Below, piece by piece: positions 8,560 to 53,153 of a DNA stretch of 64,000 nt. The position numbers were made by a program, and so were the translations under genes. Within the stretch, counting starts at the first letter, position 1; every line of letters begins with the position of its first letter. Source of the DNA: Argopecten irradians (taxonomy: Eukaryota); the NCBI RefSeq assembly GCF_041381155.1, contig NC_091134.1:61182902-61246901 (forward strand), written 5' to 3'. The notes beneath the pieces were generated by a model. The model made no database searches. It was not told the origin of the DNA and saw nothing but the letters and a program-made list of their open reading frames with translations.

Positions 8560-8747
8560 TCTGTAGATGCTAACATGGGAAATACAGATCTGTACCGACC
8601 TCTGCACTCATTTTACCTTTTAAAGCCGGAGAATGCATTACGGAATATTTTCCTTGTGTCTGATGGACATATCAACCACAAAGATGTTACCATGGATACA
8701 GTACACAAAAACTCCCAACATACACGGGTGTTCACCTTTGGTGTCAG
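8560..8747 (+). CDS. Gene A exon (vWA domain middle: SVDANMGNTDLYRPLHSFYLLKPENALRNIFLVSDGHINHKDVTMDTVHKNSQHTRVFTFGV)
   Basis: Acceptor caattgcag| and donor gtgtcag|gtctga. It holds the vWA MIDAS-region motifs GxT and the hydrophobic-DG strand. It is phase 0 in and phase 2 out. Confidence 0.7.
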
Positions 8748-9275
8748 GTCTGAAACAAATCATTCTTTAAAAAATTCAACACTTATCATTGGAAAATTTG
8801 GGTAGTAGACTTAGAATATTGATTCAATAGTATTTAGTAATTAGACTGATGTGGGAGACCAATAGTAACCTTAGTGTCCATCTATATGTCTAAAACTAAA
8901 ACAAAAATTGTCCCATTTCAGTAAAAATTGGTATACAGGAGTATTTGCAGGGGTTACTAGTCATTTACTACTAACTACAGCTAAGGGGTCAACTATATGG
9001 GGTCAGGGCCATTACTGTTGGATTTCAGTTTTCTAATAAGTTTTACTACGATAACCAAATATGATATTGACTTCCCAATCACTAGTCAGTTTTAGTGAGG
9101 ATGATGTTTTAGTGATTTCACGTGCATGTGATTTAATTTGATTCGTAAATTGATTGTACATATTTCACATTTTTTCATCTGCAGGAAAAGGCCATGTAGT
9201 GTACTTACCTGGCAATTTTAAAGTTATCTTGGTATTGAATGTCTCCCCTCCTTAAAATCACCACCTTTTTGGATT

Positions 9276-10935
9276 TTTAGCCCACCATCATCAGATGGTG
9301 GGCTATTTAAATCACCTTTTGTCTGTGGTCCGTCGTCCGTCCGTCCGTCCTTCTTTCCGTCCGTCCGTCCGTTAACAATTCTTGTTACCGCTATTTCTCA
9401 GAAAGTACTGAAGTGATCTTTCTCAAATTTCATATGTAGGTTCCCCTATGGCCCTAGTTGTGCATATTGCATTTTGGGACTGATCAGTTAACAAGATGGC
9501 TGCAAGGTGGCCATCTTGGATTTTGGTAGTTAAAGTTTGTTACCGCTATTTCTCAAAAAGTGCAGAAGGGATCTTTCTCAAATTTTATATGTAGGTTCCC
9601 CTAGGACCCTAGTTGTGCATTTTGCATTTTGGGACGGATCGGTCAACAAGATGGCCGACAGGTGGCCATCTTGGATTTTGGTAGTTAAAGTTTGTTACCG
9701 CTATTTCTCAAAAAGTGCAGAAGGGATCTTTCTCAAATTTTATATGTAGGTTCCCCTATGGCCCTAGTTGTGCATATTGCATTTTGGGACCGTTCGGTCA
9801 AAAATATGGCCGACAGGCGGCCATCTTGGATTTTGATAGTTGAAGTTTATTACCGCTATTTCTCAGAAAGTACTGAAGGGATCTTTCTCAAATTTCATAT
9901 GTAGGTTCCCCTGGGACCCTAGTTGTGCATATTGCATTTTGGGACCGATCGGTCAACAAGATGGCCAACAGGCGGCCATCTTTGATTTTGGTAGTTAAAG
10001 TTTGTTACCGCTATTTCTCAAAAAGTGCTGAAGGGATCTTTCTCAAATTTTATATGTAGGTTCCCCTAGGACCCTAGTTGTGCATATTGCATTTTGGGAC
10101 CGATCGGTCAACAAGATGGCCAACAGGCGGCCATCTTTGATTTTGGTAGTTAAAGTTTGTTACCGCTATTTCTCAAAAAGTGCTGAAGGGATCTTTCTCA
10201 AATTTTATATGTAGGTTCCCCTAGGACCCTAGTTGTGCATATTGCATTTTGGGACCGATCGGTCAACAAGATGGCTGACATGCGACCATCTTGGATTTTT
10301 ATAGTTAAAGTTTGTTACCGCTATTTCTCAGAAAGTACTGAAGGGATCTTTCTCAAATTTCATATGTATGTTCCCCTAGGGCCCTAGTTGTGCATATTGC
10401 ATTTTGGGACCGATCGGTCAACAAGATGGCTGCCATGCAGCTATCATGGATTTTTATAGTTAAAGTTTTTTATTGCTTTTTCTCAGAAAGTATTGAAGGG
10501 ATCTGTCTCAAATTTCATATGTAGGTACCCCTAGGTCCCTAGTTGTGCATATTGTGTTTTGGGACCGATCGGTCAACAAGATGGCCACCTGGCAGCCATC
10601 TTGGATTTTGATAGTTAAAGTTTGTTATTGCTATTTCTAAAAAAGTACTGAAGGGATCTCTCTCAAATTGTATATGCAGGTTCCCCTAGGGCCCTAGTTG
10701 TGCATATTGCATTTTGTAACTATTAGGTCAACAAGATGGCTGCACAGCCGCCATCTTGGATTTCATCGTTGAAGTTTGTTACCACTATTTCTTAGAAAGT
10801 ACTATAGCGATCTATCTCAAATTTTATATGTAGTGTGTTTGAAAAAGTTTGAAAAGCAGGGAAAAGATCCCTCTTTCCATTGTCAGACATAGATAATTCT
10901 TTGGTGGGCGCCAAGATCCCTCTGGGATCTCTTGT
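9276..10935 (-). mobile_element. HINE/DINE-1-like non-autonomous element carrying satellite B. On the + strand it reads, in order:
- TTTAG + hairpin (agcccaccatcatcagatggtgggct)
- (CCGT)n microsatellite 9319-9372
- ~155-bp satellite B x ~9.5 (9383-10835)
- palindromic tail (agatccctctgggatct)
   Basis: Direct reading. The order of hairpin, tetranucleotide microsatellite and tandem array matches the 3-prime to 5-prime layout reported for Helentron-associated HINEs. Confidence 0.6.
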
Positions 10936-11002
10936 TAAGGCAATGTGGTTTTCACTAATTACTACATCTTATTTCTCATATTTTTCATATTTTTATCAAC
11001 AG

Positions 11003-11102
11003 CAGTGTAATGAATCGCCACTTGCTTGGAGCTCTTGCTCGCGTTGGGGCAGGTGCCTTTGAGGGATTTGATAGTAAAGCAAAATCAAAATGGGAAGGCA
11101 AG
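11003..11102 (+). CDS. Gene A exon (S(S)VMNRHLLGALARVGAGAFEGFDSKAKSKWEGK). NAGNAG acceptor at 11002/11005.
   Basis: Acceptor tatcaacag(cag)| and donor ggcaag|gtaaac. The phase is consistent with the previous exon. The peptide resembles the VWA5A region ARASGGTSEFITGKDRMQSK. Confidence 0.65.
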
Positions 11103-11324
11103 GTAAACTGTATTTCTATAAAACTTGGAAGTTTGAAAGTATAAAGTCTTGTTGAGAATGAAATTTTTATTCTTTTATAAAGAAACATGATAAAGTAATA
11201 GTCCTGCTAAGCAGTCCAACAGCAATGTTAACGAAAGTTCTATAATTACATTGTAAATTTTTGCTCCAATTACACATTCTGCTATGTGATAATAGACCTA
11301 AGGAGCTTAATTCATTCACTTGTG

Positions 11325-11590
11325 TTTTTAAGCCCAGCATCATCAGATGATGAGTTAAGTCATATCTTTTTTGCCAGCTATAGTTCTCTGAAATTGTTCT
11401 CAAAAGTTCTGAAAGTATCTTTTCCAAGAGTTTTTAACAATTCAAGTTTGTTATTGCTTCTTCTCAAAATACTGTGTGTTTCTATATCCCTATTGATCTC
11501 TAGGTGTGTGTATTCCATTTTGGAATTGATTTAGAAAACAAAGCCAACTGCAGGTGGCTATCTTAGTTTTGATAATTTAAGTATTAAATG
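11325..11590 (-). mobile_element. Degenerate solo copy of the same element type, with a hairpin remnant (ttaagcccagcatcatcagatgatgag) and about one diverged satellite-B monomer
   Basis: The monomer gttattgcttcttctcaaaatactg...caactgcaggtggctatcttagttttg aligns to the satellite-B unit gttaccgctatttctcaaaaagtg...caagatggccgacaggtggccatcttggattttg. Confidence 0.5.
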
Positions 11591-11868
11591 TTTCCACAAT
11601 AACCACATCTCAAAAGATGTTGGATTATTTATGGTCTAATATTACAAGTTTGCTCCCATTGTCCTTACCTTAGTATTGTTTATACATGTACTCCATTTTA
11701 GGGTCATATGAAAACCAAAACAGGAGAGAAATGAAAAAAGTATAGCTGATATATATAGGTCCTTGATTTAACCGATATCACATTATTCAGTTATGAACCA
11801 TAAGATCCCTCAGATCTCTTGCTAAAATATATACAATACTACATGTACATCATTATATCTGTTTCCAG

Positions 11869-12036
11869 GTGAAGTCACAGATTGCTAAGGCGGGTCAGCC
11901 TGGTTTGACATCAGTTGCTGTCTCTTGGCAACAGGAAGATGGTGCCCCGCCTCCAAAACAAGCACCCAATCAAATCACAGCTCTGTTTAGTGGATCAAGG
12001 ATGGTTGTTTACGGATTTGTAAAGAACTGTTCCAGT
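11869..12036 (+). CDS. Gene A exon (VKSQIAKAGQPGLTSVAVSWQQEDGAPPPKQAPNQITALFSGSRMVVYGFVKNCSS)
   Basis: Acceptor gtttccag| and donor ccagt|gtaagt. It resembles VWA5A ..VSLSWHLPPG..IFRGQRLISYAQL. Confidence 0.7.
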
Positions 12037-12151
12037 GTAAGTTGTTTGTCTATGATTTCCTGTAAGCCTTTGGGAGTCAGAAGTTGACAACCCTTTAATA
12101 ACATGTAACTGTCATATGTTATACAGTTCTATGTAAAACAAACTGGTTACT

Positions 12152-12927
12152 CAGTATTGCCAACTCACTCGATTTCTCCGGGTTGACCCGTTTTTTTAGA
12201 CATTTTAGAATGCATAACCTGATTGACCCGTCTGGTCATCAAATAACTTGATTTTCAGCACTTGTACAAAAGTGTCAAAAAGCTCACAAAAATCACGTCA
12301 GATAAAGCCATAAGCGCAATTTTAATTACATCTCAGGGCTTTAGACTCATATCGGCCTTTGTATAATGCAGGTAGCTATGTTTGTGTTTACACAAACTTT
12401 CATAAAGGTGTGAAATTGTAGCAATTAATCTATTCAGTCATGCATCACAATGTCTATGATCGTTTTTAGCAAGAGCCAGCTAGCAAAATCAGACATGGCC
12501 ATTTAATACTCTTCAAAATCAGTAATAATCTTTTCAAAACTCTTCAAGATTTACTCACATAAATAAAACATAGTCACGTGAACGGTATCCTAGCTGTTGA
12601 AGTAGGCAGACAAGCTAATCATAATGGCTGCCATTTTGTTTAGTCAAAGACAATAGTGAAACCAGACAAAAATCCGGATTTATTTAATAAATATTTAAAA
12701 GATTTTTTAATAATTTTCTTTATTAATTATCAGATATTAATTTCATTATTACAAAAATATTCATAAATATTATTGAATAACAATATGAATATCATAAATA
12801 TATGCATATTCTAGGCTTTAAAAAAGTGTTTAAAATTTCACTCAAATGACCCTTGTTTTGACCCTTTCACCCGTTTTTTCAAGGGTGATCACCTGATTTG
12901 ACCTCATCAGAGGTTGTTGGCAATACT
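12152..12927. mobile_element. MITE candidate, ~775 bp, terminal inverted repeats cagtattgccaac...gttggcaatactg
   Basis: 13-bp perfect TIRs read directly, with subterminal gacccg/cgggtcaa-like repeats. The TSD is not clear. Confidence 0.4.
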
Positions 12928-13177
12928 GGTTTCTGACTGCATAAAATATTATTTAGAAAAGAAGTATTAATATTGTAATTAAGTGTATTTGTGATGTCTA
13001 CTGATGATAGTTTTCTGGGCATTGTGTGAACCACACCTGACATTACTCACCAGTCATATACAGGTGATGCAGTGCTTATATAAGAAATTACCCGCCAACT
13101 CTGTATAGATTGTCTGTAAACTGATTCCATCGCAACATTTAAGGTTCTATTAAGAAAATGTTTTGTTTCTTCTGCAG

Positions 13178-13258
13178 GCAACATTGACTGCTGAAATAGG
13201 CGACCAGGAAATAGCAGCTTTAGTGACCAAATCTGACCGATATGTCACCAAAGGAAAG
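13178..13258 (+). CDS. Gene A exon (ATLTAEIGDQEIAALVTKSDRYVTKGK)
   Basis: Acceptor tcttctgcag| and donor ggaaag|gtaaga. It is 81 nt and phase 0. Confidence 0.6.
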
Positions 13259-13453
13259 GTAAGACAGCTCACAAGTGCTAAACAATAACGTGACGGCATC
13301 AATACATGTGGCGTAACTGCGGCGTGCATTGTAGATGACGTCATCAATATTGACGCATAACAACATTCCTGCGATAATGGCGCGATGAAAAAGCTGAAAA
13401 CCAACTGGAATTTCATCATTTTTTCTACAAAGTATGGGAGAAAAAGAATCAAA

Positions 13454-13552
13454 CATGGGTCTGTCAAGTGGACAAGCCTCGGGTTGACCGGCCAAAATCT
13501 TTCACTCGGGTTGAGATATCCCTGTCCACTTGACAGACCCATGTAAGATCCT
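13454..13552. mobile_element. Small hairpin MITE. It has 24-bp perfect inverted repeats (catgggtctgtcaagtggacaag / cttgtccacttgacagacccatg) with a ~50-bp loop. A related half-copy lies at about 29245-29275.
   Basis: Direct reading. Confidence 0.55.
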
Positions 13553-13792
13553 AGTAGTCTCCTATGATCCAGTTTGCTAGTTTTTCTTAGATCTGTACTA
13601 GAAAAAGTAATTCTCCCATAATCTGTCAATGTCCCGTTTCCAGTTTGTAACATGTACATGTACTTGGAAAAGTAAAACAAAGGACTCACATGTGACTTTC
13701 CTTGATTTAAGCATGATATGTTGATTTTTAGTTTCAGTTTTAAGATGTTTGTACAGATTCAGGGAATTTCCACTAACATTTTGATGTTACAG

Positions 13793-13873
13793 ATTTTACA
13801 CCGTTTGGCAGCCAAAGCAATCATTCGTGATTGGGAGGATGGACTGCTCTCCCCAGATGGTCTAAATCAACAG
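13793..13873 (+). CDS. Gene A exon (ILHRLAAKAIIRDWEDGLLSPDGLNQQ)
   Basis: Acceptor ttgatgttacag| and donor caacag|gtaaga. HRLAA is a VWA5A-like motif. Confidence 0.7.
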
Positions 13874-14688
13874 GTAAGATGTCTTTTTAAGAATATTACT
13901 TTATCAACTGTGGTTTATATTTCTATACTGTTGTGTGTGGTATTTTAATACCATTGGTTTGGAAAAGTTTAGTTCAACATATGTGTATGTTGTTCAAGAC
14001 ACAAACATGTATTTCTTATAAAAGTGTTTTGAAACTCTTCTGGAATCTTCTAAGCCTTGACACTTTGAGCTGCACACAGGATTTACCTAGTAACTGGTTT
14101 ATAAGTGATTGTCCAAAAAAGGATCACATATAAACCGGGCAGCGGTCCAAAATCTTAATATATACCGGCTACAGGTCTCTTATAGACCAGTTAAGGGTAC
14201 ATTCTGTGCCTTCCATGAAATGTAACACAAAAGGAACAAAAGGGTTTACACTATATTAAACTGTGTTTTAAGGGTTAAATAGACAATCTTTGGACACCTT
14301 CTTCTAAGTTACATATAGGCCAATAGCCTTATTATTTCTTAAAATGAATGGCTTTGAAAATTAATTCATGATTACAGGAATGAAGTAAGTTTTAAGTTTT
14401 AATAAGGATTGTTAACTCGATGTCCAAGGCCTTGGCAGTTGATATAAACATGGGCCTGTAGAATGCTTGAGTTTTGGAATGTGCTAGGTTTATTGATGGA
14501 AGAAAGTCAGAATACCCGGAGAAAAACCACTGACCAGCAGTCAGTACCTAGCAATTCGAATTCACGACCCAGAGGTTGAAGGCTTGTGGTTACACCCCCC
14601 CCTAAATTTGCTCTTGTTATAGAACATCTCATTGACATTAACTTTTGTATACATAGTTTGACCGTCTGAATTAATGTTTTTATTTCAG

Positions 14689-14790
14689 AGAATGAAGATG
14701 GACCTAAAAGGCTATGTTATAAAGCTTAGCAAAGAGTTCTGTATAGTGACTTCACTAACTAGCTTCATCGCAGTGGAAAAACGTGAAAAG
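14689..14790 (+). CDS. Gene A exon (RMKMDLKGYVIKLSKEFCIVTSLTSFIAVEKREK)
   Basis: Acceptor tttatttcag| and donor gaaaag|gtctga. TSFIAVE compares with SSFTAFIAI in VWA5A and ITIH. Confidence 0.7.
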
Positions 14791-15209
14791 GTCTGAGAGA
14801 AAACTTAATTTCAAAAATGTAACTTTGAAGTTAAGAGTTTGTATTTTGTTGTACTTTTGGCCGTTCTGCTCTTCCTATCAATATATATATATAGAAACAA
14901 CCACATTATGGATATTTCTAAATAAATGTCACAGTAGGTTATTTTGTACTATGCCCCCTATGAAACAACTCTGTTGTTTCTATTGCATTATTATAGCTTT
15001 AGTTTTAAAACAATCTTGAATACTTTAGTACAAAAAGTCTGAAATTTTCTGATTATAATAATAGAAAGACATTTATAGAAATGAGATAATATTTTCTTCT
15101 AACAAGGTATTTTGTTATATCTTTACATATGAGCTGTTTATAAAAGGCTGACAAAATCATTGTGTGTTGACTTGTAATAGTGGTGATGTACTTGTCTGAT
15201 TAATAATAG

Positions 15210-15335
15210 GATGAAGAAATGACATGTGCTCCGGATATCTATGAACTCTTGGATGAAGTGCGAGAAAATGTTTGTTCATTCCTTCGCCTCGACATCACCC
15301 CAAATGATTTTGAAGCAGCTCTAGATTCTGATGAT
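15210..15335 (+). CDS. Gene A exon (DEEMTCAPDIYELLDEVRENVCSFLRLDITPNDFEAALDSDD)
   Basis: Acceptor ttaataatag| and donor gatgat|gtaagt. It is 126 nt and phase 0. There is no homology support beyond frame and splice sites. Confidence 0.5.
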
Positions 15336-15417
15336 GTAAGTGTGTTTTTAGATATAATCAAGCCTTCAGATTACTAAAAGGTTATTAGTAAGGCTTGTAA
15401 GACAAATTTACTTCAGA

Positions 15418-16382
15418 TAGGGCTGAAACGATTAGTAATTTTTGTATTCAATTATTTGGTCTCATGTAATCGATTACTAATCGATTAATCGTTTGAATTG
15501 AAGGCAACTATATTGTTTCACTACTGACTACTGAAAACGTCCGCCATGTTTTGTTATCAACTAATAATAACACCTACCGTATAATATGACAGAGGACATG
15601 CCTTATATAATATAAGCCTACCAATATCCCAATGATATTTAAATCTCTGCAACAAATAAGAATAGATTTATTGACAAAACAAACGTATTTTATCCCAAAT
15701 AAGCTCTGAATTCCGTTCCTGTATTGTCTTCCGTAACATCGTTTAAATCAAGTCTGCTAACCCGCTGTTTTGACGTGACCTTCACACGTACGACTAATCA
15801 ACCAAATCTGGATCGCCACGGAGCAACATGACCAAATTTTCGTCAATGAACTTTTTTATTTCCGTGATCAAAAAAACAAAATAAATCAACAACTCTTATA
15901 TTCAATTAGAATATGAACAAAAACATTCTTTTTATATGATAAACACATGCAATAGTAAAATCTAAATGTTCAAGATTACTGCTCCTTCCGCTCCCGAGCG
16001 TCCCGGCGGCGATTAGGCCTCCGTGACGTAACAACATGGAGTCGATCGCTAGTGAAAATTGGCGAACAGCGTGTTGCAAGCTTTCTCATGACATCCACTT
16101 TTTCATTGATTAATGACTTTAACTTCCACAGAGACGTAATTTAACAAGTATTTCTCACATCATATATGCTTTGTTGAGTTCAAAACATGTACATAAAGAG
16201 ATGAAACTCCAGTCGGAATGGCTTACTCAGAAATCCATGATCTGTCAACGTGTTTAGTCAGCTTACAATGCACTGGCTATGCATGTTACGATTAACGATT
16301 AATAAAATCTTTAATCGATTATCAGCAATTAGCTTCATTAATCTAATCGCCTCCGATTATTCGACTAATCGTTTCAGCCCTA
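15418..16382. mobile_element. Non-autonomous hAT-superfamily DNA transposon (~965 bp). It has 18-bp perfect TIRs (TAGGGCTGAAACGATTAG) and an 8-bp target-site duplication ACTTCAGA (15410-15417 and 16383-16390).
   Basis: TIR and TSD read directly. An 8-bp TSD plus a TAGGG.. terminus is the hAT hallmark. There is no transposase ORF inside. Confidence 0.75.
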
Positions 16383-17194
16383 ACTTCAGACCATAGGCAC
16401 ATTTTTAGTAGGGGGGAGGAGGGCAGTATTCTTGAATCAACGATCCCCACCTGTCCGTAGAAAAAAATGTCCAGACACTTCCACCTTATTTATTGAATCA
16501 ATTTCAGTGAAACTTGGCAGCAACGCTGGCAGGGCCATGTGTAGATGTGTATGCAGGTTTTATCTTATAAAAAATTTGGTTGCCAAGGTAAACAGGTCAC
16601 TGTACACAGGTTTTATAATGTAGCCAATGACTAAGCTTGTTGTTAAATTTTGGATAATTTTCTTCAAACTTGGTGAATTGTTGTAACACATGGATATCTA
16701 TAATTTGACACACCACATGATTCCATAGCAGTTTTTATGGAAAAAAGATTGTACATAGATAATCTCATTTACTCTCTGATATCTTAAGCATGCACTATGA
16801 TTACCAGGTACCAGGTGAGCGATTTTATTGTGTTCATGAAACTTAACCCTGTTATCTGACGTAAATGACCATACAATGTAGTTTGTTTCTGCCGAATAAT
16901 TATGTAATGAGAGCAATATCTGACATTTAAATCAATTTGTAAGTTTTAATTGTAATATTAAATACTTCACAATTACTTAGTCGGTATATCCAAAGATGTA
17001 ATGTAAATAAAAAACAAAAAGAAAAAAAAACCTCTGAGCCTTGTGTTTCCGTAAGGTTGTCAGTTATACACATATTTCATAACTTAATATTAATGTCATA
17101 CAATTGAGACACAAAACCTTAATTAACCACTTTGTTGGAACTGTCCAAAAGTATATACTTTTCATAGACATACAGAATTCTGATTTATTCTCAG

Positions 17195-17233
17195 GAATCC
17201 ACCAGTTATTCGACAGATGATACCGGTGAACAT
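17195..17233 (+). CDS. Gene A micro-exon (ESTSYSTDDTGEH)
   Basis: Acceptor tgatttattctcag| and donor gaacat|gtaagt. It is 39 nt and phase 0. Support is weak because it is short. Confidence 0.4.
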
Positions 17234-17274
17234 GTAAGTAATACATCAATTATTGTATGGATGTACCTTAAGGT

Positions 17275-18512
17275 GGCTAAGATGTGATATTGTTTATGTA
17301 GACAGAAGATCAAGTAAATGAGGTAGAGGTGTGATATTGTTTATGTAGACAGAAGATCAAGTAAATGAGGTAGAGGTGTGATATTATTTATGTAGACAGA
17401 AGATCAGGTAAATGAGGAAGAGATGTGATATTGTTTATGTAGACAGAAGATCAGGTAAATGAGGCTGAGATGTGATATTGTTTATGTAGACAGAAGGTCA
17501 GGTAAATGAGGTAGAGATGTGATATTGTTTATGTAGACAGAAGATCAGGTAAATGGGGTAGAGATGTGATATTGTTTATGTAGACAGAAGATCAAGTAAA
17601 TGAGGTAGAGATGTGATATTGTTTATGTAGACAGAAGATCAGGTAAATGAGGTAGAGATGTGATATTGTTTATGTAGACAGAAGATCAGGTAAATGAGGT
17701 AGAGATGTGATATTATTTATGTAGACAGAAGATCAGGTTAATGAGGTAGAGATGTGATATTGTTTATGTAGACAGAAGTTTAGTAAAAATGGGTAGTGAT
17801 ATGATATTGTTTATGTAGACAGAAGATCAGGTAAATGAGGTAGAGATGTGATATTGTTTATGTAGACAGAAGATCAGGTTAATGAGGTAGAGATGTGATA
17901 TTGTTTATGTAGACAGAAGATCAGGTAAATGAGGCTGAGATGTGATATTGTTTATGTAGACAGAAGATCAGGTAAATGAGGAAGAGATGTGATATTGTTT
18001 ATGTAGACAGAAGATCAGGTAAATGAGGTAGAGATGTGATATTGTTTATGTAGACAGAAGACCAGGTTAATGAGGTAGAGATGTGATATTGTTTATGTAG
18101 ACAGAAGACCAGGTTAATGAGGTAGAGATGTGATATTGTTTATGTAGACAGAAGACCAGGTTAATGAGGTAGAGATGTGATATTGTTTATGTAGACATAA
18201 GATCAGGTAAATGAGTTAGAGATGTGATATTGTTTATGTAGACAGAAGATCAGGTAAATGAGGTAGATATGTGATATTGTTTATGTAGACAGAAGATCAG
18301 GTAAATGAGGTAGAGATGTGATATTGTTTATGTAGACAGAAGATCAAGTAAATGAGGTAGAGATGTGATATTGTTTATGTAGACAGAAGATCAGGTAAAT
18401 GAGGTAGAGATGTGATATTGTTTATGTAGACAGAAGATCAAGTAAATGAGGTAGAGATGTGATATTGTTTATGTAGACAGAAGATCAGGAAATGAGGTAG
18501 AGATGTGATATT
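17275..18512. repeat. 37-bp minisatellite (unit ~tgtgatattgtttatgtagacagaagatcaggtaaatgaggtagaga) x ~33, left block
   Basis: Direct reading. It sits in a gene A intron. Confidence 0.9.
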
Positions 18513-18514
18513 GT

Positions 18515-20370
18515 TTTTAGGTCATCTGACCCGAAGGGTCAGGATGACCTATAGTCATCATGTTTCATCCGTCATCGTCCGCCGTCCGCCGTCCGCCGTG
18601 CGTTAACTTTTCACATTTTGAACTTCTTCTCAAGTTCTACCAGTGCAATTTGGCTGAAACTTGCATGAAATGATCCTGACATGGTCCCGACAAAGTGTTG
18701 TTATTTTTCGGGTCGATCCGAAATCAAAGATGGCCGCCACAGCCGCCATCTTGAAAACACATTTTGAACTTCTTCTCAAGTTCTACCGGTGCGATTTGAC
18801 TGAAACTTGCATGAAATGATCCTGACATGGTCCCGACAAAGTGTTGTTAATTTTCAGGTCGATCCGAAATCCAAGATGGCCGCCACAGCCACCATCTTGA
18901 AAACACATTTTGAACTTCTTCTAAAGTTCTACTGGTGCGCTGAAACTTGCATGAAATGATCCTGACATGGTCCTGACAAAGTGTTGTTATTTTTCGGGTC
19001 GATCCGAAATCCAAGATGGCCGCCACAGTCGCCATCTTGAAAACACATTTTGAACTTCTTCTCAAGTTCTACTGGTGCGATTTGGCTGAAAATTGCATGA
19101 AATGATCCTGACATGGTCCTGACAAAGTGTTGTTATTTTTCGGGTCGATCCGAAATCCAAGATGGCAGCCACAGCCGCCATCTTGAAAACACATTTTGAA
19201 CTTCTTCTCAAGTTCTACTGGTGCGATTTGGCTGAAACTTGCATGAAATGATCCTGACATGGTCCCGACAAAGTGTTGTTATTTTTCGGGTCGATCCCAA
19301 ATCCAAGATGGCCGCCACAGCCGCCATCTTGAAAACACATTTTGAACTTCTCAAGTTCTACCGGTGCGATTTGGCTGAAACTTGCATGAAATGATCCTGA
19401 CATGGTCCCGACAAAGTGTTGTTATTTTTCGGGTCGATCCGAAATCCAAGATGGCCGCCACAGCCGCCATCTTTAAAACACATTTTGAACTTCTCAAGTT
19501 CTACCGGTGCGATTTGGCTGAAACTTGCATGAAATGATCCTGACATGGTCCCGACAAAGTGTTGTTATTTTTCGGGTCGATCCGAAATCCAAGATGGCCG
19601 CCACAGCCGCCATCTTGAAAACACATTTTGAACTTCTTCTCAAGTTCTACCGGTGCGATTTGACTGAAACTTGCATGAAATGATCCTGACATGGTCCAAA
19701 CAAAGTGTTGTTATTTTTCGGGTCGATCCGAAATCCAAGATGGCCGCCACAGCCGCCATCTTGAAAACACATTTTGAACTTCTTCTCAAGTTCTACTGGT
19801 GCGATTTGACTGAAACTTGCATGAAATGATCCTGGCATGGTCCCGACAAAGTGTTGTTATTTTTCGGGTCGATCCGAAATCCAAGATGGCCACCACAGCC
19901 GCCATCTTGAAAACACATTTTGAACTTCTTCTCAAGTTCTACCGGTGCGGTTTGACTGAAACTTGCATGAAATGATCCTGACATGGTCCTGACAAAGTGT
20001 TGTTATTTTTTAGGTTGATACGAAACCCAAGATGGCAGCCACAGCCGCCATCTTGAAAACATATTTCGAACTTCTTCTCAAGTTCTACCGGTGCGATTTG
20101 GCTGAAACTTGCATGAAATGATCCTGACATGGGCCCGACAAAGTATTGTTACATCTCTGGTTGATCACAAATCGAAGCTGGCTACCATGACACTCTATCT
20201 AATTAATTTCCTATATGTTAAGGCCCTTGGGCCTCTTGTTTGAAATAAAATTTGTTGAAAGAAATTGAAAATGATCCTGACATGGTCCTGACAAAGTGAC
20301 ACCATATATAATTAATTTTACTATTGCCAAGGTAGTCAGATGACCGTTAAGGCCCTTTGGGCCTCTTGTT
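18515..20370 (-). mobile_element. HINE-like element carrying satellite C, inserted inside the 37-bp minisatellite. On the + strand it reads, in order:
- TTTTAG + hairpin (ggtcatctgacccgaagggtcaggatgacc)
- (CCGT/CCGC)n
- ~146-bp satellite C x ~10.5 (18603-20150)
- duplicated tail ..gtcagatgaccgttaaggccctttgggcctcttgtt
   Basis: The minisatellite unit is split (..gatattgttt | element | gtagacataagatcagg..) and resumes in phase. The tail contains gtcagatgacc, which is complementary to the head stem ggtcatctgac (an asymmetric TIR). Confidence 0.65.
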
Positions 20371-22195: not shown

Positions 22196-22610
22196 ATAAG
22201 GTAAATAGAGGTCAATCATTTAAATCGATGCATGTCATAATATTCTTCATGGATTGTAACCAAATTTGGCCAGAAACATCCTCTAAGAGTTTGTATAGTT
22301 ATTGGCTCTGACCCCCTGGGGCAGGAGGGGCGAGGTTTAATAGGAGAAATAGAGGTAATTCCTTTAAATCGCTACTAGTCATAGAGTTCTGCATTAAATT
22401 TGGCTAGAAACATCTTTTGAGGAAGGGGAACAGACTGTTTATAAATTTTGGCTGTAAAGCAGAATAAGTGGAGCCTAATGGGGAAATTAGTAAATATCTA
22501 AATTTACTTCAGAAAAGAAACAATGAACCTGTAATCAGAACCTTACTTGGCATTACAAACCAGGTGAGCGATACAGGCCCTCTTGGCCTCTTGTTTAGAT
22601 GATTTCAATA
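22196..22610 (-). mobile_element. Headless fragment of a satellite-D element: ~1.7 monomers plus tail (..accaggtgagcgatacaggccctcttggcctcttgttt)
   Basis: It matches the 31054-33057 element at the monomer and tail. Confidence 0.55.
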
Positions 22611-39670: not shown

Positions 39671-39754
39671 GAGTTGACAGCACAAAAGGCTTCTCGTACA
39701 AAGAAAAAGAAGGCAATGTTGTCCATTTCAAAGCCACTCAAAAAGATCGACCTG
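39671..39754 (+). CDS. Gene A exon (ELTAQKASRTKKKKAMLSISKPLKKIDL)
   Basis: Acceptor ctcaatcttacag| and donor gacctg|gtaaat. It is 84 nt and phase 0. Confidence 0.5.
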
Positions 39755-39865
39755 GTAAATAATTAAGCTTCAACACATCTTCTGGTTCTAAAGATGTGAT
39801 ACATTTTTCTCTGACTGTATTTATAACACCCTCTGTTGTAGGTTATCATTAGTATAAAGTCATAG

Positions 39866-42800
39866 GTAGGTATTGTTATACTGTCCTTGGTACATAGTCA
39901 TTGCTAGGTATTGTTATACTGTCCTTGGTACATAGTCATTGTTAGGTATTGTTATACTTGTCCATTGGTAATAGTCATTGTTAGGTATTTTTATACTGTC
40001 CTTGGTATATAGTCATTGTTAGGATTGTTATACTGTCCTTGGTACATAGTCATTGTTAGATATTGTTATACTATCCTTGGTATATAGTCATTGTTAGGTA
40101 TTGTTATACTGTCCTTGGTATATAGTCATTGTTAGGTATTGTTATACTGTCCTTGGTACATAGTCATTGTTAGGTATTGTTATACTGTCCTTGGTATATA
40201 GTCATTGTTAGGTATTGTTATACTATCCTTGGTATATAGTCATTGTTAGGTATTGTTATACTGTCCTTGGTATATAGTCATTGTTAGGTATTGTTATACT
40301 GTCCTTGGTATATAGTCATTGTTAGGTATTGTTATACTGTCCTTGGTATATAGTCATTGTTAGGTATTGTTATACTGTCCTTGGTATATAGTCATTGTTA
40401 GGTATTGTTATACTTTCCTTGGTATATAGTCATTGTTAGGTATTGTTATACTATCCTTGGTATATAGTCATTGTTAGGTATTGTTATACTGTCCTTGGTA
40501 TATAGTCATTGTTAGGTATTGTTATACTGTCCTTGGTATATAGTCATTGTTAGGTATTGTTATACTGTCCTTGGTATATAGTCATTGTTAGGTATTGTTA
40601 TACTGTCCTTGGTATATAGTCATTGTTAGGTATTGTTATACTGTCCTTGGTATATAGTCATTGTTAGGTATTGTTATACTGTCCTTGGTATATAGTCATT
40701 GTTAGGTATTGTTATACTGTCCTTGGTATATAGTCATTGTTAGGTATTGTTATACTATCCTTGGTATATAGTCATTGTTAGGTATTGTTATACTGTCCTT
40801 GGTATATAGTCATTGTTAGGTATTGTTATACTGTCCTTGGTATATAGTCATTGTTAGGTATTGTTTATCTGTCCTTGGACTATATAGTCATTGTTAGGTA
40901 TTGTTATACTGTCCTTGGTATAGTCATTGTTCATTGTTATACTTCCTGGTATAGTCATTGTTTATTGTTATACTGTCCTTGGTATATAGTCATAGTTAGG
41001 TATTGTTATACTGTCCTTGGTACATAGTCATTGTTAGGTATTGTATTGTACTGTCCTTGGTACATAGTCATTGTTAGTATTGGTATTGTTATACTGTCCT
41101 TGGTACATAGTCATTGTTAGGTATTGTTATACTGTCCTTGGTATATAGTCATTGTTAGGTATTGTTATACTGTCCTTGGTACATAGTCATTGTTAGGTAT
41201 TGTTATACTGTCCTTGGTACATTAGTCATTGTTAGGTATTGTTATACTGTCCTTGGTATATAGTCATTGTTAGGTATTGTTATTACTGTCCTTGGTACAT
41301 AGTCATTGTTAGGTATTGTTATACTGTCCTTGGTATATAGTCATTGTTAGGTATTGTTATACTGTCCTTGGTATATAGTCATTGTTAGGTATTGTTATAC
41401 TGTCCTTGGTATATAGTCATTGTTAGGTATTGTTATACTGTCCTTGGTACATAGTCATTGTTAGGTATTGTTATACTATCCTTGGTATATAGTCATTGTT
41501 AGGTATTGTTATACTGTCCTTGGTATATAGTCATTGTTAGGTATTGTTATACTGTCCTTGGTATATAGTCATTGTTAGGTATTGTTATACATCCTTGGTA
41601 TAGTCATTGTTAGGTATTGTCCTTTAGGTATTGTTATACTGTCCTTGGTATATAGTCATTGTTAGGTATTGTTATACTGTCCTTGGTATATAGTCATTGT
41701 TAGGTATTGTTATACTGTCCTTGGTATATAGTCATTGTTAGGTATTGTTATACTGTCCTTGGTATATAGTCATTGTTAGGTATTGTTATACTGTCCTTGG
41801 TATATAGTCATTGTTAGGTATTGTTATACTGTCCTTGGTATATAGTCATTGTTAGGTATTGTTATACTGTCCTTGGTATATAGTCATTGTTAGGTATTGT
41901 TATACTGTCCTTGGTACATTATCATTGTTAGGTATTGTTATACTGTCCTTGGTACATAGTCATTGTTAGGTATTGTTATACTGTCCTTGGTACATAGTCA
42001 TTGTTAGGTATTGTTATACTGTCCTTGGTATATAGTCATTGCTAGGTATTGTTATACTGTCCTTGGTACATAGTCATTGTTAGGTATTGTTATACTGTCC
42101 TTGGTATATAGTCATTGTTAGGTATTGTTATACTGTCCTTGGTATATAGTCATTGTTAGGTATTGTTATACTGTCCTTGGTATATAGTCATTGTTAGGTA
42201 TTGTTATACTGTCCTTGGTATATAGTCATTGTTAGGTATTGTTATACTATCCTTGGTATATAGTCATTGTTAGGTATTGTTATACTGTCCTTGGTACATA
42301 GTCATTGTTAGGTATTGTTATACTATCCTTGGTATATAGTCATTGCTAGGTATTGTTATACTATCCTTGGTATATAGTCATTGTTAGGTATTGTTATACT
42401 GTCCTTGGTATATAGTCATTGTTAGGTATTGTTATACTGTCCTTGGTATATAGTCATTGTTAGGTATTGTTATACTGTCCTTGGTATATAGTCATTGTTA
42501 GGTATTGTTTATACTATCCTTGGTATATAGTCATTGTTAGGTATTGTTATACTGTCCTTGGTATATAGTCATTGTTAGGTATTGTTATACTGTCCTTGGT
42601 ACATAGTCATTGTTAGGTATTGTTATACTGTCCTTGGTACATATAGCCATTGTTAGGTATTGTTATACTGTCCTTGGTATATAGTCATTGTTAGGTATTG
42701 TTATACTGTCCTTGGTATATAGTCATTGTTAGGTATTGTTATACTATCCTTGGTATATAGTCATTGTTAGGTATTGTTATACTGTCCTTGGTATATAGTC

Positions 42801-45800
42801 ATTGTTAGGTATTGTTATACTGTCCTTGGTATCATAGTCATTGTTAGGTATTGTTATACTGTCCTTGGTATATAGTCATTGTTAGGTATTGTTATACTGT
42901 CCTTGGTATATAGTCATTGTTAGGTATTGTTATACTGTCCTTGGTATATAGTCATTGTTAGGTATTGTTATACTGTCCTTGGTATATAGTCATTGTTAGG
43001 TATTGTTATACTGTCCTTGGTATATAGTCATTGTTAGGTATTGTTATACTGTCCTTGGTACATAGTCATTGTTAGGTATTGTTATACTGTCCTTGGTACA
43101 TAGTCATTGTTAGGTATTGTTATACTGTCCTTGGTACATAGTCATTGTTAGGTATTGTTATACTGTCCTTGGTACATAGTCATTGTAGGTAGGTACTTCC
43201 TTGGTATAGCATTGTTAGGTATTGTTATACTGTCCTTGGTACATAGTCATTGTTAGGTATTGTTATACTGTCCTTGGTACATAGTCATTGTTAGGTATTG
43301 TTATACTGTCCTTGGTATATAGTCATTGTTAGGTATTGTTATATACTGTCCTTGGTATATAGTCATTGTTAGGTATTGTTATACTGTCCTTGGTATATAG
43401 TCATTGTTAGGTATTGTTATACTGTCCCTTAGGTATTGGTCCTTGGTATATAGTCATTGTTAGGTATTGTTATACTGTCCTTGGTATATAGTCATTGTTA
43501 GGTATTGTTTATACTGTCCTTGGTACATAGTCATTGTTAGGTATTGTTATACTATCCTTGGTATATAGTCATTGTTAGGTATTGTTATACTGTCCTTGGT
43601 ATATAGTCATTGTTAGGTATTGTTATACTATCCTTGGTATATAGTCATTGTTAGGTATTGTTATACTGTCCTTGGTATATAGTCATTGTTAGGTATTGTT
43701 ATACTGTCCTTGGTACATAGTCATTGTTAGGTATTGTTATACTGTCCTTGGTATATAGTCATTGTTAGGTATTGTTATACTGTCCTTGGTATATAGTCAT
43801 TGTTAGGTATTGTTATACTGTCCTTGGTACATAGTCATTGTTAGGTATTGTTATACTGTCCTTGGTACATAGTCATTGTTAGGTATTGTTATACTGTCCT
43901 TGGTATATAGTCATTGTTAGGTATTGTTATACTATCCTTGGTATATAGTCATTGTTAGGTATTGTTATACTGTCCTTGGTACATAGTCATTGTTAGATAT
44001 TGTTATACTGTCCTTGGTACATAGTCATTGTTAGGTATTGTTATACTGTCCTTGGTATATAGTCATTGTTAGGTATTGTTATACTGTCCTTGGTACATAG
44101 TCATTGTTAGGTATTGTTATACTGTCCTTGGTACATAGTCATTGTTAGGTATTGTTATACTGTCCTTGGTATATAGTCATTGTTAGGTATTGTTATACTA
44201 TCCTTGGTATATAGTCCATGTTAGGTATTGTTATACTGTCCTTGGTATATAGTCATTGTTAGGTATTGTTATACTGTCCTTGGTATATAGTCATTGTTAG
44301 GTATTGTTATACTGTCCTTGGTATATAGTCATTGTTAGGTATTGTTATACTGTCCTTGGTATATAGTCATTGTTAGGTATTGTTATACTGTCCTTGGTAT
44401 ATAGTCATTGTTAGGTATTGTTATACTATCCTTGGTATATAGTCATTGTTAGGTATTGTTATACTGTCCTTGGTACATAGTCATTGCTAGGTATTGTTAT
44501 ACTGTCCTTGGTATATAGTCATTGTTAGGTATTGTTATACTGTCCTTGGTATATAGTCATTGTTAGGTATTGTTATACTGTCCTTGGTATATAGTCATTG
44601 TTAGGTATTGTTATACTATCCTTGGTACATAGTCATTGTTAGGTATTGTTATACTATCCTTGGTACATAGTCATTGTTAGGTATTGTTATACTGTCCTTG
44701 GTATATAGTCATTGTTAGGTATTGTTATACTGTCCTTGGTATATAGTCATTGTTAGGTATTGTTATACTGTCCTTGGTATATAGTCATTGTTAGGTATTG
44801 TTATACTGTCCTTGGTATATAGTCATTGTTAGGTATTGTTATACTGTCCTTGGTATATAGTCATTGTTAGGTATTGTTATACTGTCCTTGGTATATATAG
44901 TCATTGTTAGGTATTGTTATACTGTCCTTGGTATATAGTCATTGTTAGGTATTGTTATACTGTCCTTGGTACATAGTCATTGTTAGGTATTGTTATACTG
45001 TCCTTGGTACATAGTCATTGTTAGGTATTGTTATACTATCCTTGGTATATAGTATTGTACTATCCTTGGTATATAGTCATTGTTAGGTATTGTTATACTG
45101 TCCTTGGTATATAGTCATTGTTAGGTATTGTTATACTGTCCTTGGTATATAGTCATTGTTAGGTATTGTTATACTATCCTTGGTATATAGTCATTGTTAG
45201 GTATTGTTATACTGTCCTTGGTACATAGTCATTGTTAGGTATTGTTATACTATCCTTGGTAACATAGTCATTGTTAGGTATTGTTTATACTATCCTTGGT
45301 ATATAGTCATTGTTAGGTATTGTTATACTGTCCTTGGTATATAGTCATTGCTAGGTATTGTTATACTGTCCTTGGTATATAGTCATTGTTAGGTATTGTT
45401 ATACTGTCCTTGGTATATAGTCATTGTTAGGTATTGTTATACTGTCCTTGGTATATAGTCATTGTTAGGTATTGTTATACTGTCCTTGGTACATAGTCAT
45501 TGTTAGGTATTGTTATACTGTCCTTGGTATATAGTCATTGTTAGGTATTGTTATACTGTCCTTGGTACTTATAGTCATTGTTAGGTATTGTTATACTGTC
45601 CTTGGTATATAGTCATTGTTAGGTATTGTTATACTGTCCTTGGTACATAGTCATTGTTAGGTATTGTTATACTGTCCTTGGTATATAGTCATTGTTAGGT
45701 ATTGTTATACTGTCCTTGGTACATAGTCATTGTTAGGTATTGTTATACTATCCTTGGTATATAGTCATTGTTAGGTATTGTTATACTGTCCTTGGTATAT

Positions 45801-46878
45801 AGTCATTGTTAGGTATTGCTAGGTATTGTTATACTGTCCTTGGTACATAGTCATTGTTAGGTATTGTTATACTATCCTTGGTATATAGTCATTGTTAGGT
45901 ATTGTTATACTGTCCTTGGTATATAGTCATTGTTAGGTATTGTTATACTGTCCTTGGTATATAGTCATTGTTAGGTATTGTTATACTATCCTTGGTATAT
46001 AGTCATTGTTAGGTATTGTTATAGGTATTGTTATACTGTCCTTGGTATATAGTCATTGTTAGGTATTGTTATACTGTCCTTGGTATATAGTCATTGTTAG
46101 GTATTGTTATACTGTCCTTGGTACATAGTCATTGTTAGGTATTGTTATACTGTCCTTGGTATATAGTCATTGTTAGGTATTGTTATACTGTCCTTGGTAT
46201 ATAGTCATTGTTAGGTATTGTTATACTGTCCTTGGTATATAGTCATTGTTAGGTATTGTTATACTATCCTTGGTATATAGTCATTGTTAGGTATTGTTAT
46301 ACTGTCCTTGGTATATAGTCATTGTTAGGTATTGTTATACTGTCCTTGGTATATAGTCATTGTTAGGTATTGTTATACTGTCCTTGGTACATAGTCATTG
46401 TTAGGTATTGTTATACTGTCCTTGGTATATAGTCATTGTTAGGTATTGTTATACTGTCCTTGGTATATAGTCATTGTTAGGTATTGTTATACTGTCCTTG
46501 GTATATAGTCATTGTTAGGTATTGTTATACTGTCCTTGGTATATAGTCATTGTTAGGTATTGTTATACTGTCCTTGGTATATAGTCATTGTTAGGTATTG
46601 TTATACTGTCCTTGGTATATAGTCATTGTTAGGTATTGTTATACTGTCCTTGGTATATAGTCATTGTTAGGTATTGTTATACTATCCTTGGTATATAGTC
46701 ATTGTTAGGTATTGTTATACTGTCCTTGGTATATAGTCATTGTTAGTGTTAGGTATTGTTATACTGTCCTTGGTATATAGTCATTGTTAGGTATTGTTAT
46801 ACTGTCCTTGGTATATAGTCATTGTTAGGTATTGTTATACTGTCCTTGGTATATAGTCATTGTTAGGTATTGTTATAT
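39866..46878. repeat. 36-bp minisatellite (tatagtcattgttaggtattgttatactgtccttggta), ~7 kb and ~195 units, in a gene A intron
   Basis: Direct reading. Units carry occasional t/c (tatag/catag) and g/a variants. Confidence 0.95.
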
Positions 46879-47384: not shown

Positions 47385-47498
47385 GAGCAGTCTGTTTCGT
47401 GGAGGAAATGTGAGTCACCAGACTTCTTCAGAAAGATGGATCAAGAAAATGACTTACTTGAAGCTGATCAGAAGAAGCCAACAGAACATGCAAAGAAG
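47385..47498 (+). CDS. Gene A exon (EQSVSWRKCESPDFFRKMDQENDLLEADQKKPTEHAKK)
   Basis: Acceptor tacaaatag| and donor aagaag|gttggt. It is 114 nt and phase 0. Confidence 0.5.
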
Positions 47499-48641: not shown

Positions 48642-48768
48642 ATACCAGTTGGTAGGAAGTGTCATGGAATGAGAGTAACAGAGAGCATTGAAAGAAATAC
48701 GGAGGAATTAAGCTTCCAAAGGGCTGGAGCCTATCGTACAAGGTCTTCTGGTGGATCTTGCTGTATGG
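48642..48768 (+). CDS. Gene A candidate exon (IPVGRKCHGMRVTESIERNTEELSFQRAGAYRTRSSGGSCCM-)
   Basis: Acceptor tttattcaag| and donor tgtatgg|gtatat. It ends with 1 extra nt, which the next confirmed exon needs. There is no homology support. Confidence 0.3.
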
Positions 48769-49602: not shown

Positions 49603-49776
49603 GCCCTAGAACGGCAACATATGAGAACACACGCAATGGAAGAGCTCTACATGTAGATGGACGATGGGTTCAGGATAAAGAAAGACCAGAAGAACTGCAT
49701 GGATTTTTGTCTAAAGTCAAAGATAAATCTGGAGGCAAAGGCCGAAGCTTAAATGATCTGACTGACAGAGAGCCTG
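49603..49776 (+). CDS. Gene A possible additional exon (..PRTATYENTRNGRALHVDGRWVQDKERPEELHGFLSKVKDKSGGKGRSLNDLTDREP-)
   Basis: Acceptor tttcttggtag| and strong donor cctg|gtgagt. It is phase-neutral (1 nt in, 1 nt out), so frame cannot confirm or exclude it. Confidence 0.2.
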
Positions 49777-51404: not shown

Positions 51405-51680
51405 TGTCAGTATACCGGGAGTTGGATTACTGGTTCGCCCGGGCCGTTGTCAGTATAATGTGACGGAGTGGGGTGTGTTGCTTTGAGTCTTTGGTGGAAT
51501 GTTTCAAATATATAGCACTATAAAAAGGGCAACAGTTCCACTATACAAGGAGGCACAATGCGAATATACCACAGTCTTCCAAAGCACGCACAGCGCACTT
51601 CATACACACTGCACCCCGCATGCATGGGAAGCCATCCTTACATGACCATGGCTGTTAATAGGACATTAATTAACAGAGCA
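51405..51680 (+). mobile_element. Second SINE-like copy. It shares the conserved central domain (ccatccttacatgaccatggctgttaataggacattaa) with the 38777 SINE but has a different 5-prime part.
   Basis: Domain identity read directly. A B-box-like ggttcgccc lies at about 51440. Confidence 0.4.
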
Positions 51681-52004
51681 CCATGTACTGACTGGTAACC
51701 ACAAAATTAAATTTCATGTACTCCAAGGTCAAGGTCATTAGAGGTCATCCTGGTCACATCACAGGACCAGCGGGGTTAATCCCTTAATGAGCAAGTCATG
51801 GTTTACTCCATAGGAATGGCAAACAAAGCTTATAAACGGTCATGATTATTTTGTTTAATTGCATCTTTCCATAAAATTTCAGACATGTTGACTTTTAATA
51901 GAGAACAATCTATATTCCATGCGCATATCTGTTGTGCTTAAAGTGGCTTGTCGGAGTTGAAGAAATGAAGCCTATCTTCAATTGTTTTGTTTGTTATGTT
52001 TTAG

Positions 52005-52105
52005 ATCTTGCCGATGTCGGATCAAAAATGCCAGTCATTGCTAAGGCAGCAAAGAAAAACCTCAGTAAAAAAGAATTTGACATCCTGAAAAAAATTCAAA
52101 ATAAG
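52005..52105 (+). CDS. Gene A exon (-D LADVGSKMPVIAKAAKKNLSKKEFDILKKIQNK)
   Basis: Acceptor gttatgttttag| and donor aataag|gtacat. Confidence 0.6.
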
Positions 52106-52427
52106 GTACATGTATATCCAAACGTAAAAAGTAAATGGATACTTTAACATCTTTAAAGGATATGAAAATAAAGTGCAATGTAAATATTCATCTTCATAAT
52201 AAACTATTGGATTGGATTTAAGGTTAACTATTGATAGTATTATCAATATTTTGAACAACCCTATTACTATTTGATAAATAAAGCAATTATAACCGAATCT
52301 CTATTATTATAAATATCACATTATGAAAACGATGAAATATTAGACTTCATAAAAGTCGAGGTATCAGCTGTATATGAAATTGAAATTTCACACTCATATT
52401 GTTCATAATAAACTGATTGTATTACAG

Positions 52428-52524
52428 TTAGGGGGTTGGACGAGGGATGAACTGGAGAAGGACCTGTATATTGATTTATCAGCCTGTATTGAGGTCCTAA
52501 ACACTGCAGGACTGAAGTCACTTG
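52428..52524 (+). CDS. Gene A exon (LGGWTRDELEKDLYIDLSACIEVLNTAGLKSL-)
   Basis: Acceptor gtattacag| and donor cacttg|gtaggt. It resembles the VWA5A C-terminal NGSWDLNEDLAKILG. Confidence 0.65.
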
Positions 52525-52857
52525 GTAGGTGGTACTGCATCGTAACTTCATCTCTATGGGAGTTTACTCAACAGGATTTTTCTCCAGTTGCATTTAATTT
52601 GATAAAAGTCGGTAAAAAGAAATGTAATTACGTTGTTTATTTTACTTTGTGGACTTCCTTTTCATTTTTGGACAGTCTTGAGCTAAAAACTTTGGAAACA
52701 GGAGAAAAAAATATCATACACAATTAGAGCCGAAACCTTGTTTTCTGGTATGGTTCGATCACACATAATAAATTTATATTTAAGATGCTGAGTGAAGGGT
52801 ATTCGATCATCGGTAAATGAACAGAAATCCTACTATACTGCATGAATATTTTTTTAG

Positions 52858-53153
52858 GTGTGAAGGTCGCTATGGAAATGGAGAATGTTTTAGTGACAGC
52901 ATTTGTTGTCATGTGGATACTCAAGACACTGGCACCAGAGTTATTCCCCTTGGATACCACCACCAGGAATTGGTCCCAAACTGCCGTGGAAATAGCAGCA
53001 GCCGTACTGGAGATATATGACCATGATCGGTCGTTGTTGGACAAGGCTGTTCAGTACTGTGACCAGTTAGAGAGGGCACACCCAGGTGTCGCCTATATAT
53101 TGGAACTGGGGTCTAACTGGTTCAATGTGGCTTCAAAAATATTAGGGTTATGA
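52858..53153 (+). CDS. Gene A terminal coding exon (-G VKVAMEMENVLVTAFVVMWILKTLAPELFPLDTTTRNWSQTAVEIAAAVLEIYDHDRSLLDKAVQYCDQLERAHPGVAYILELGSNWFNVASKILGL*)
   Basis: Acceptor tatttttttag| and stop TGA at 53151-53153. It resembles the VWA5A C-terminus ..SSGWATILAVIWLHS..ELLERKAVAWMRAH. Confidence 0.65.

Follow-up and report, generated by a model that had tools for sequence, protein, structure and literature searches.

The window analysed here, a stretch of 64,000 nt from the scallop Argopecten irradians (assembly GCF_041381155.1, contig NC_091134.1, positions 61,182,902 to 61,246,901 of the forward strand), very probably contains the 3′ two-thirds of a gene for PARP4, the vault PARP, made up of a chain of plus-strand exons spanning positions 8560–53153 plus one further exon at 273–360. 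The locus is already annotated in RefSeq with eight isoforms, so that it is an ordinary gene and the gene model is not new. What changes is the family label: an earlier reading made from the letters alone, here called the sequence-only reading, had taken the gene as VWA5A-like, with PARP4 among the comparison proteins that it named, and the label is corrected here to PARP4.

An exhaustive search of a representative library of 1.8 billion proteins with the translation of the last three exons (52005–53153) retrieved, with 100% identity over 164/164 residues, the C-terminus of a 1280-aa protein. This protein is RefSeq XP_069141939.1, PARP4-like isoform X2 from Argopecten irradians, which is clustered with isoforms X1 and X3–X8. 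All eight isoforms, named “protein mono-ADP-ribosyltransferase PARP4-like” (XP_069141930.1 and seven others, 1221–1281 aa), map with 100% identity to the plus strand between positions 8575 and 53153. Isoform X2 was placed by exact k-mer mapping in the three forward frames, as 24 collinear blocks from 8575 to 53150, and a junction solver demanding GT-AG (or GC-AG) borders and exact translation reproduced X1 in full, with 3846 nt including the stop codon; a more general junction solver reproduced all eight isoforms. As predicted from the sequence, the exon-phase chain closes, with consistent phases and GT-AG borders in 23 out of 23 introns. Likewise, the proposal of one multi-exon gene of more than 44 kb with VWA sequence at its 5′ end is borne out by the RefSeq isoforms, which cover its span of 44,594 nt, and the coordinates named for it (the acceptor at 8560, the exons at 17195, 22674, 48642, 49603 and 52005, and the stop codon at 53153) are all exact. 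The count of 23 exons held in part: there are 24 coding exons in X1–X4, the longest isoforms, and 23 in X5–X8, because X5 and X6 omit 29422–29457 and X7 and X8 omit 49603–49776. As the 23-exon model included the exon at 49603, it most likely corresponds to X5/X6. The estimate of about 3.6 kb of coding sequence was somewhat low, since exon sequence counted from 8560 amounts to 3861 nt and the coding sequence (CDS) of X1 to 3846 nt. The isoforms differ further in NAGNAG acceptors at 11006 (X3) and 29754 (X2 and X6), and in an alternative donor at 48762 (X4 and X8).

Both ends of the encoded protein lead to PARP4. Residues 1–253 align with human PARP4 948–1199 (E = 3.4e-59, phmmer against PDB sequences), where the VWA part finds its best human match, and identity on this side is 59–65% to the PARP4 proteins of Potamilus and Saccostrea. 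The match of the VWA-side exons to Pfam VWA_3 is weak, as the domain is represented here by its second half only, and VWA_3 is the sole Pfam match in the full 1281-aa protein. The C-terminal 164 aa (residues 1118–1281 of X1) belong to a family of C-terminal domains with members in molluscs, amphioxus and other animals, for which a Pfam scan returned no curated model. A profile built from 15 homologues of this domain matched human PARP4 1572–1706 (E = 2e-20) and essentially nothing else in the PDB; the matched region falls within the construct of the MINT (MVP-interaction) domain, human PARP4 1562–1724, whose complex with MVP repeats 3–5 has been solved (PMC12280208). An AlphaFold2 model of the scallop domain is all-helical, with a mean predicted local distance difference test (pLDDT) score of 82.7, and its only convincing fold match in the PDB, top of the Foldseek results, is chain 9bw6_B, which is PARP4 as resolved in the vault-cage structure (probability 1.0; template modelling (TM) scores 0.51/0.60). 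Three MINT residues have been highlighted at the interface with MVP, S1614, K1618 and R1689 (PMC12280208); in alignments read against that work, the scallop domain keeps the equivalents of S1614 and K1618 (AGLKSLGVK). Additionally, the homologous proteins of Potamilus and Liolophura contain BRCT, PARP regulatory, VIT and VWA domains ahead of MINT, and the one from Potamilus also matches the PARP catalytic model (Pfam). The MINT domain, the best human match and the BRCT and PARP domains of the orthologues therefore lead us to the PARP4 label and, judged on its sequence, the gene is a PARP4 and neither a VWA5A nor an ITIH.

In their order along the gene, exons 1–7 encode the latter half of the VWA domain and, behind it, the conserved post-VWA region; exons 8–21 encode a fast-evolving, disordered, acidic and proline-rich linker with a 27-aa repeat and a motif resembling the tail of ribosomal P-stalk proteins; and exons 22–24 encode the helical C-terminal MINT domain. 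By analogy with the human PARP4 structure, MINT would dock the protein onto MVP repeat domains 3–5 inside the vault. The BRCT, catalytic and VIT exons would lie upstream of the window, as suggested by the orthologues and by the related locus of the scallop Ylistrum balloti. Recent structural work takes PARP4–MVP binding as a vertebrate feature, whereas with the PARP4 label a recognizable MINT domain is seen to exist in invertebrates, molluscs and amphioxus among them.

The first VWA exons had been placed outside the window; instead, a PARP4 VWA exon (GLDEAKKILLLILHYLPKSWTFNFIIFGT) exists at 273–360 on the plus strand, outside the RefSeq CDS, preceded by AG at 271–272 and followed by GT at 361, with a donor in phase 1. 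This exon was found by tblastn with six mollusc PARP4 proteins. A profile hidden Markov model (HMM) of the PARP4 VWA domain from 101 homologues assigns it to domain positions 31–60 (E = 6e-7), and assigns the exon at 8560 to positions 82–153 (E = 6e-26). The 8.2-kb interval between the two exons holds a foldback-like structure at 579–7187, in which inverted arms of a 173-bp satellite (579–1168 and 6669–7187) surround about 5.5 kb; the arms contain inverted repeats of 241–260 nt (85–91%) that match on opposite strands. The sequence-only reading was therefore right in assigning the satellite complex at 1–7555 to an upstream intron, between exons 273–360 and 8560. Outside the foldback arms there are a 49-bp array (4–224) and a 60/118-bp array (7213–7550). 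An open reading frame (ORF) of 270 aa on the minus strand (3599–4408) gave no significant Pfam match, and a coding role for the satellite ORFs was rejected, as Pfam scans of the intronic ORFs were without significant match.

A number of findings weigh against the assignment to PARP4, several of them at this 5′ end. VWA positions 61–81 (“YKELFP...AKEFI”, about 21–28 aa) had no match in either strand of 1–9000; the search comprised regular expressions, tblastn with short segments of the six homologues, all phase-compatible AG...GT open segments, and the 101-sequence profile HMM against the six-frame ORFs of the same region. The donor at 360 is in phase 1 and the acceptor at 8560 in phase 0, and their junction is out of frame (...FGT-VCRC-stop), with a TAA at 8571–8573, two bases before the RefSeq ATG at 8575; in this assembly the reading frame therefore cannot be followed into the catalytic half. 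All eight RefSeq proteins start at this methionine, midway through the VWA domain, and are devoid of a catalytic domain. In the linker, exons 8–15 and 17–20 showed no homology, even in the Ylistrum locus, and no transcript-derived proteins were found for exons 7–15 and 17–21 in the word-indexed protein database; exons 8–15 and 17–20 draw their support from the RefSeq models and from phases that close between canonical splice sites. In MINT, the equivalent of human R1689 is Ile, and conservation of the PARP4-binding residues of MVP is reported for vertebrates only (PMC12280208), so that vault docking in the scallop is something that we infer.

The missing VWA exon probably explains the RefSeq start at Met 8575, and it could also reflect a gene that is itself broken, with the exon lost in the intron that carries the foldback satellite. 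The catalytic half would then be uncoupled, leaving a half-VWA, linker and MINT protein starting at Met 8575; or else 360 would be joined in frame to an alternative acceptor at 8567 (FGT-D-ANMGNTD), removing around 28 residues of the VWA fold. This possibility, which we regard as unlikely but deserving of attention, fits the unmatched VWA positions, the stop codon of the 360–8560 junction and the common start of the eight isoforms, as well as the intact state of the 3.8-kb ORF and MINT downstream. It also fits a search with a Potamilus PARP-VIT-VWA query, whose best 120 matches included no scallop protein and so no separate N-terminal PARP4 from A. irradians, but the index of that search seemingly contained no proteins longer than 1200 aa. 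The same index limit applies to a first word-indexed search with VWA exon peptides, which retrieved only fragments of 47–69% identity. However, a piece as short as the missing one could be lost in a misassembled repeat region, and the N-terminal model from Ylistrum is uninterrupted through the VWA domain. Moreover, elsewhere in this gene 779 bp are duplicated in tandem (29407–30169 and 30186–30956), in a form that resembles an assembly artefact, with no mismatches and two indels, the copies differing by homopolymer length. It carries exons 13 and 14: the copy of exon 13 (30201–30236) is identical, and that of exon 14, from around 30530, has a 1-nt insertion, A7 for A6, that shifts the frame. 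The duplication is either very recent or an artefact of assembly and, taken together with the missing VWA exon, this copying of two exons without mismatches probably denotes a defect in the assembly or in the gene.

Two other explanations touch the identity of the locus as a whole. PARP4, VWA5A and ITIH share the VWA and post-VWA region of the VIT-VWA superfamily, and the part of the gene within the window matches only the VWA_3 and VWA Pfam models, as would also be expected from a VWA5A-like or ITIH-like gene. Nevertheless, VWA5A, a VIT-VWA family without MINT, BRCT or ART, was rejected because MINT is present and the named homologues are all PARP4, as is the best human match; ITIH was rejected because the Pfam scan of the full 1281 aa found no ITI heavy-chain C-terminal domain after the VWA. 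The BRCT and PARP domains in the orthologues and in the upstream neighbor in Ylistrum likewise argue against both families, and we consider this explanation hardly tenable. Alternatively, a 5′ VWA gene and a separate MINT gene could have been joined only by prediction across low-complexity exons. The Ylistrum balloti RefSeq annotation does contain two models, one of 1243 aa (BRCT-PARP-VIT-VWA), to which the homologues of exons 5 and 6 belong, lying directly upstream and on the same strand of another of 701 aa with MINT; besides, the middle exons of the scallop gene are without homology support, and several database proteins are MINT-only fragments. Against this, both ends are joined in eight RefSeq isoforms, whose cassette and NAGNAG variants are of the kind that transcript-based models typically show, and every intron has GT-AG borders and closed phases. 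Both ends form one polypeptide in human, Potamilus and Liolophura, and the break falls at a different point in each scallop, after a complete VWA domain in Ylistrum and inside it in A. irradians, which suggests annotation breaks rather than biology. Two genes are thus very improbable, and the doubt raised by the sequence-only reading, whether the C-terminal exons (52005–53153) belong elsewhere, comes out in favor of one gene. As far as the two genomic sequences tell, scallop PARP4 is one locus, split by annotation at different points in two species.

Returning to the PARP4 gene and its exons, all on the plus strand, exon 1 (8560–8747) contains the RefSeq start codon at 8575, the VWA_3 match and the metal ion-dependent adhesion site (MIDAS) motifs “GNT” and “SDG” of the VWA domain, which continues in exon 2 (11003–11102; alternative NAGNAG acceptor at 11006 in X3). 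Exon 3 (11869–12036) belongs to the conserved post-VWA region and is followed by exon 4 (13178–13258), identified by k-mer and junction mapping of the RefSeq proteins and by tblastn. Exon 5 (13793–13873; ILHRLAAKAIIRDWEDG) shows 92% identity to positions 2–79 of the Ylistrum locus sequence (from JAUZWB010000143.1); exon 6 (14689–14790), placed by RefSeq mapping, also has a homologue in the Ylistrum locus; and exon 7 (15210–15335) ends the conserved region (aa 236–277). The linker starts with two short acidic exons, exon 8 (17195–17233, 39 nt) and exon 9 (22674–22709, 36 nt), both placed solely by their exact match to RefSeq. RefSeq mapping also located exons 10 (23641–23693), 11 (24435–24525), 12 (27475–27581), 17 (39229–39306), 18 (39671–39754) and 19 (47385–47498). 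Exon 13 (29422–29457) is the 36-nt cassette absent from X5/X6, exon 14 (29751–29805) has the NAGNAG acceptor at 29754 used in X2/X6, and exon 20 (48642–48768) has the alternative donor at 48762 used in X4/X8. Exon 21 (49603–49776), the cassette absent from X7/X8, is conserved with the Ylistrum protein, which shows 58% identity to scallop residues 1058–1280 (exon 21 plus MINT). The MINT region begins in exon 22 (52005–52105); exon 23 (52428–52524) includes the AGLKSLG motif with the equivalent of human S1614, and exon 24 (52858–53153) the LELGSNW motif and the stop codon at 53151–53153.

The sequence encoded by exons 8–15 and 17–20 is of low complexity, acidic and rich in serine and proline. 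Exon 16 (36498–37920, 1423 nt) belongs to the proline-rich linker and contains an 81-bp coding tandem repeat (37027–37574) of 6.8 copies with 94% matches, giving proline-rich units of 27 aa (PPPPPPMLGKDFTSSGPPRPPRAPSAK); it is likely a length-polymorphic coding minisatellite. Related “PPPPP..AMAFT” repeats occur in proteins from Ylistrum and Pinctada.

Exon 15 (35743–35846) encodes SEEESDEEEEMGFGLFEDD, with a motif (EEMGFGLFEDD) closely similar to the C-terminal tail of the ribosomal P-stalk. In SDEEEEMGFGLFEDD, likewise encoded by this exon, an acidic run is followed by MGFGLF(D/E), as in the P0/P1/P2 tail ...EESDDDMGFGLFD, although the scallop motif is internal (residues ~436–449 of 1281) and that of P-stalk proteins is at the extreme C-terminus, where it binds translational GTPases. 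Like motifs are present in MINT-domain proteins of Pinctada imbricata and Branchiostoma belcheri and in one MetaClust protein of unknown species; Saccostrea cucullata and Tegillarca granosa have them in PARP4-like proteins with a VWA domain. A profile from six such segments matched, among all PDB sequences, only the C-termini of P0/P1/P2 (27 matches, best E = 1.7e-6), and did not match human PARP4; a phmmer search of the PDB with a single 35-aa motif peptide gave no match. The MGFGLF motif was not found in the Ylistrum locus and is degenerate in Potamilus, and the searchable literature contained no mention of GFGLFD with PARP4 or the vault, nor of PARP4 with the P-stalk. We advance, tentatively and as two linked readings that are doubtful but possible, that the linker of invertebrate PARP4 carries a functional mimic of the P-stalk tail, by which translational GTPases and GCN2-type sensors, the partners of the P-stalk, might be brought to PARP4 or into vaults, and that bay scallop PARP4 has been uncoupled within the VWA domain by exon loss beside the foldback satellite, so that the half with MINT and the motif is made without ADP-ribosyltransferase. 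Should the motif prove functional, it would point to a connection of the vault PARP with the machinery of translation.

The gene owes its length to tandem arrays, which account for about 38% of the intron sequence and comprise 38- and 47-bp minisatellites and satellites with monomers of 145–157 bp; tandem repeats make up 36% of the locus versus 13% of the remaining window. The window as a whole has a GC content of 31–43% and many tandem arrays with monomers of 145–173 bp, features suggestive of a bivalve genome. The intron arrays predicted from the sequence (a 7-kb minisatellite, a 4.9-kb minisatellite plus element and satellites of 1.5–2 kb) are all present. Intron 1 contains a 155-bp satellite (9382–10833; 9.4 copies, 1452 nt); intron 14, a 157-bp satellite (31060–32948; 12 copies, 1889 nt); and intron 18, of 7630 nt, a 38-bp minisatellite (39852–46877; ~183 copies, 7027 nt) that is strongly strand-asymmetric, with a GC skew of about +0.29 and an AT skew of about -0.37 on the coding strand. 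In intron 8, of 5440 nt, repeats occupy 17280–22212, where a 47-bp minisatellite (17280–18516 and 20370–22212) is split by a 146-bp satellite (18612–20182). The 47-bp blocks on both sides belong to one family, with 95% identity, and therefore one array appears to have been inserted into, or to have grown inside, the other. A 145-bp satellite family is found both in intron 11 (25358–25844) and just past the stop codon (53476–54158), with 77% identity. In blastn comparisons, arrays proved related in pairs within the 47-bp family, within the 145-bp family and between the inverted 173-bp arms, and the 155-, 146- and 157-bp satellites showed no relation to each other. In bivalves, arrays with monomers of 140–180 bp are dispersed in euchromatin and in non-coding parts of genes (PMC7492417), and satellite-filled introns are normal for a bivalve genome; we found no evidence for a function of the arrays in this gene. 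In monomer length and array size the satellites resemble the HINE (Helentron-derived) arrays of bivalves (PMC7492417), which are flanked by element-specific Helentron-derived ends: they are short (3–12 copies), with 145–157-bp monomers, and lie in non-coding parts of a gene. Conversely, the 38- and 47-bp minisatellites (7.0 and 3.1 kb) are another class of repeat, far longer than typical HINE arrays.

Downstream of the PARP4 gene, a second, unrelated gene starts at around 61.2 kb, with plus-strand exons within 61251–63501 that match He_PIG putative Ig (E = 2.2e-7), EGF (E = 5.7e-6) and F5/8 type C discoidin (E = 2.2e-5) domains. Rfam and tRNA scans over the whole window gave no match. Among related loci elsewhere, the opening exons of the 701-aa model from Ylistrum have three matches each within 5892–19215 of the locus sequence from JAUZWB010000143.1 (at about 5.9, 10.0 and 15.1 kb, with a spacing of ~4–5 kb), and these 5′ exons are tandemly duplicated. 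Additionally, several invertebrate PARP4-like or MINT proteins also carry Hsp70, 14-3-3, synaptobrevin or actin Pfam domains, and these proteins with unrelated domains are probably chimeric gene predictions across a long, repeat-rich locus.

Compared with the annotated A. irradians proteins X1–X8, each of whose residues is encoded by the exons described here, the locus that we propose differs in the upstream VWA exon at 273–360, outside the RefSeq CDS. The VWA5A and ITIH families are without MINT, BRCT and PARP domains, whereas the scallop protein has MINT. Human PARP4 (1724 aa; PDB 9bw6, 9bw7) shares with it the latter half of the VWA domain with the post-VWA region behind it, a MINT domain of the same fold and a proline-rich linker between them; however, the scallop model lacks BRCT, HD-ART and VIT, which would be upstream of the window or uncoupled, and the linkers are unalignable. 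The proteins from Potamilus streckersoni (KAK3593675.1, 2363 aa) and Liolophura sinensis (XP_064611003.1, 2150 aa) match the VWA and MINT ends of the scallop protein collinearly, but they are single ORFs that include the catalytic half, and their linker sequences are unrelated. The same arrangement of the locus occurs in another scallop, Ylistrum balloti, where it consists of LOC132545763 (XP_060065435.1, 701 aa) and its upstream neighbor of 1243 aa; the MINT exons of LOC132545763 are 72–75% identical to those of A. irradians, and it is similarly stretched, taking 43 kb to encode 701 aa.

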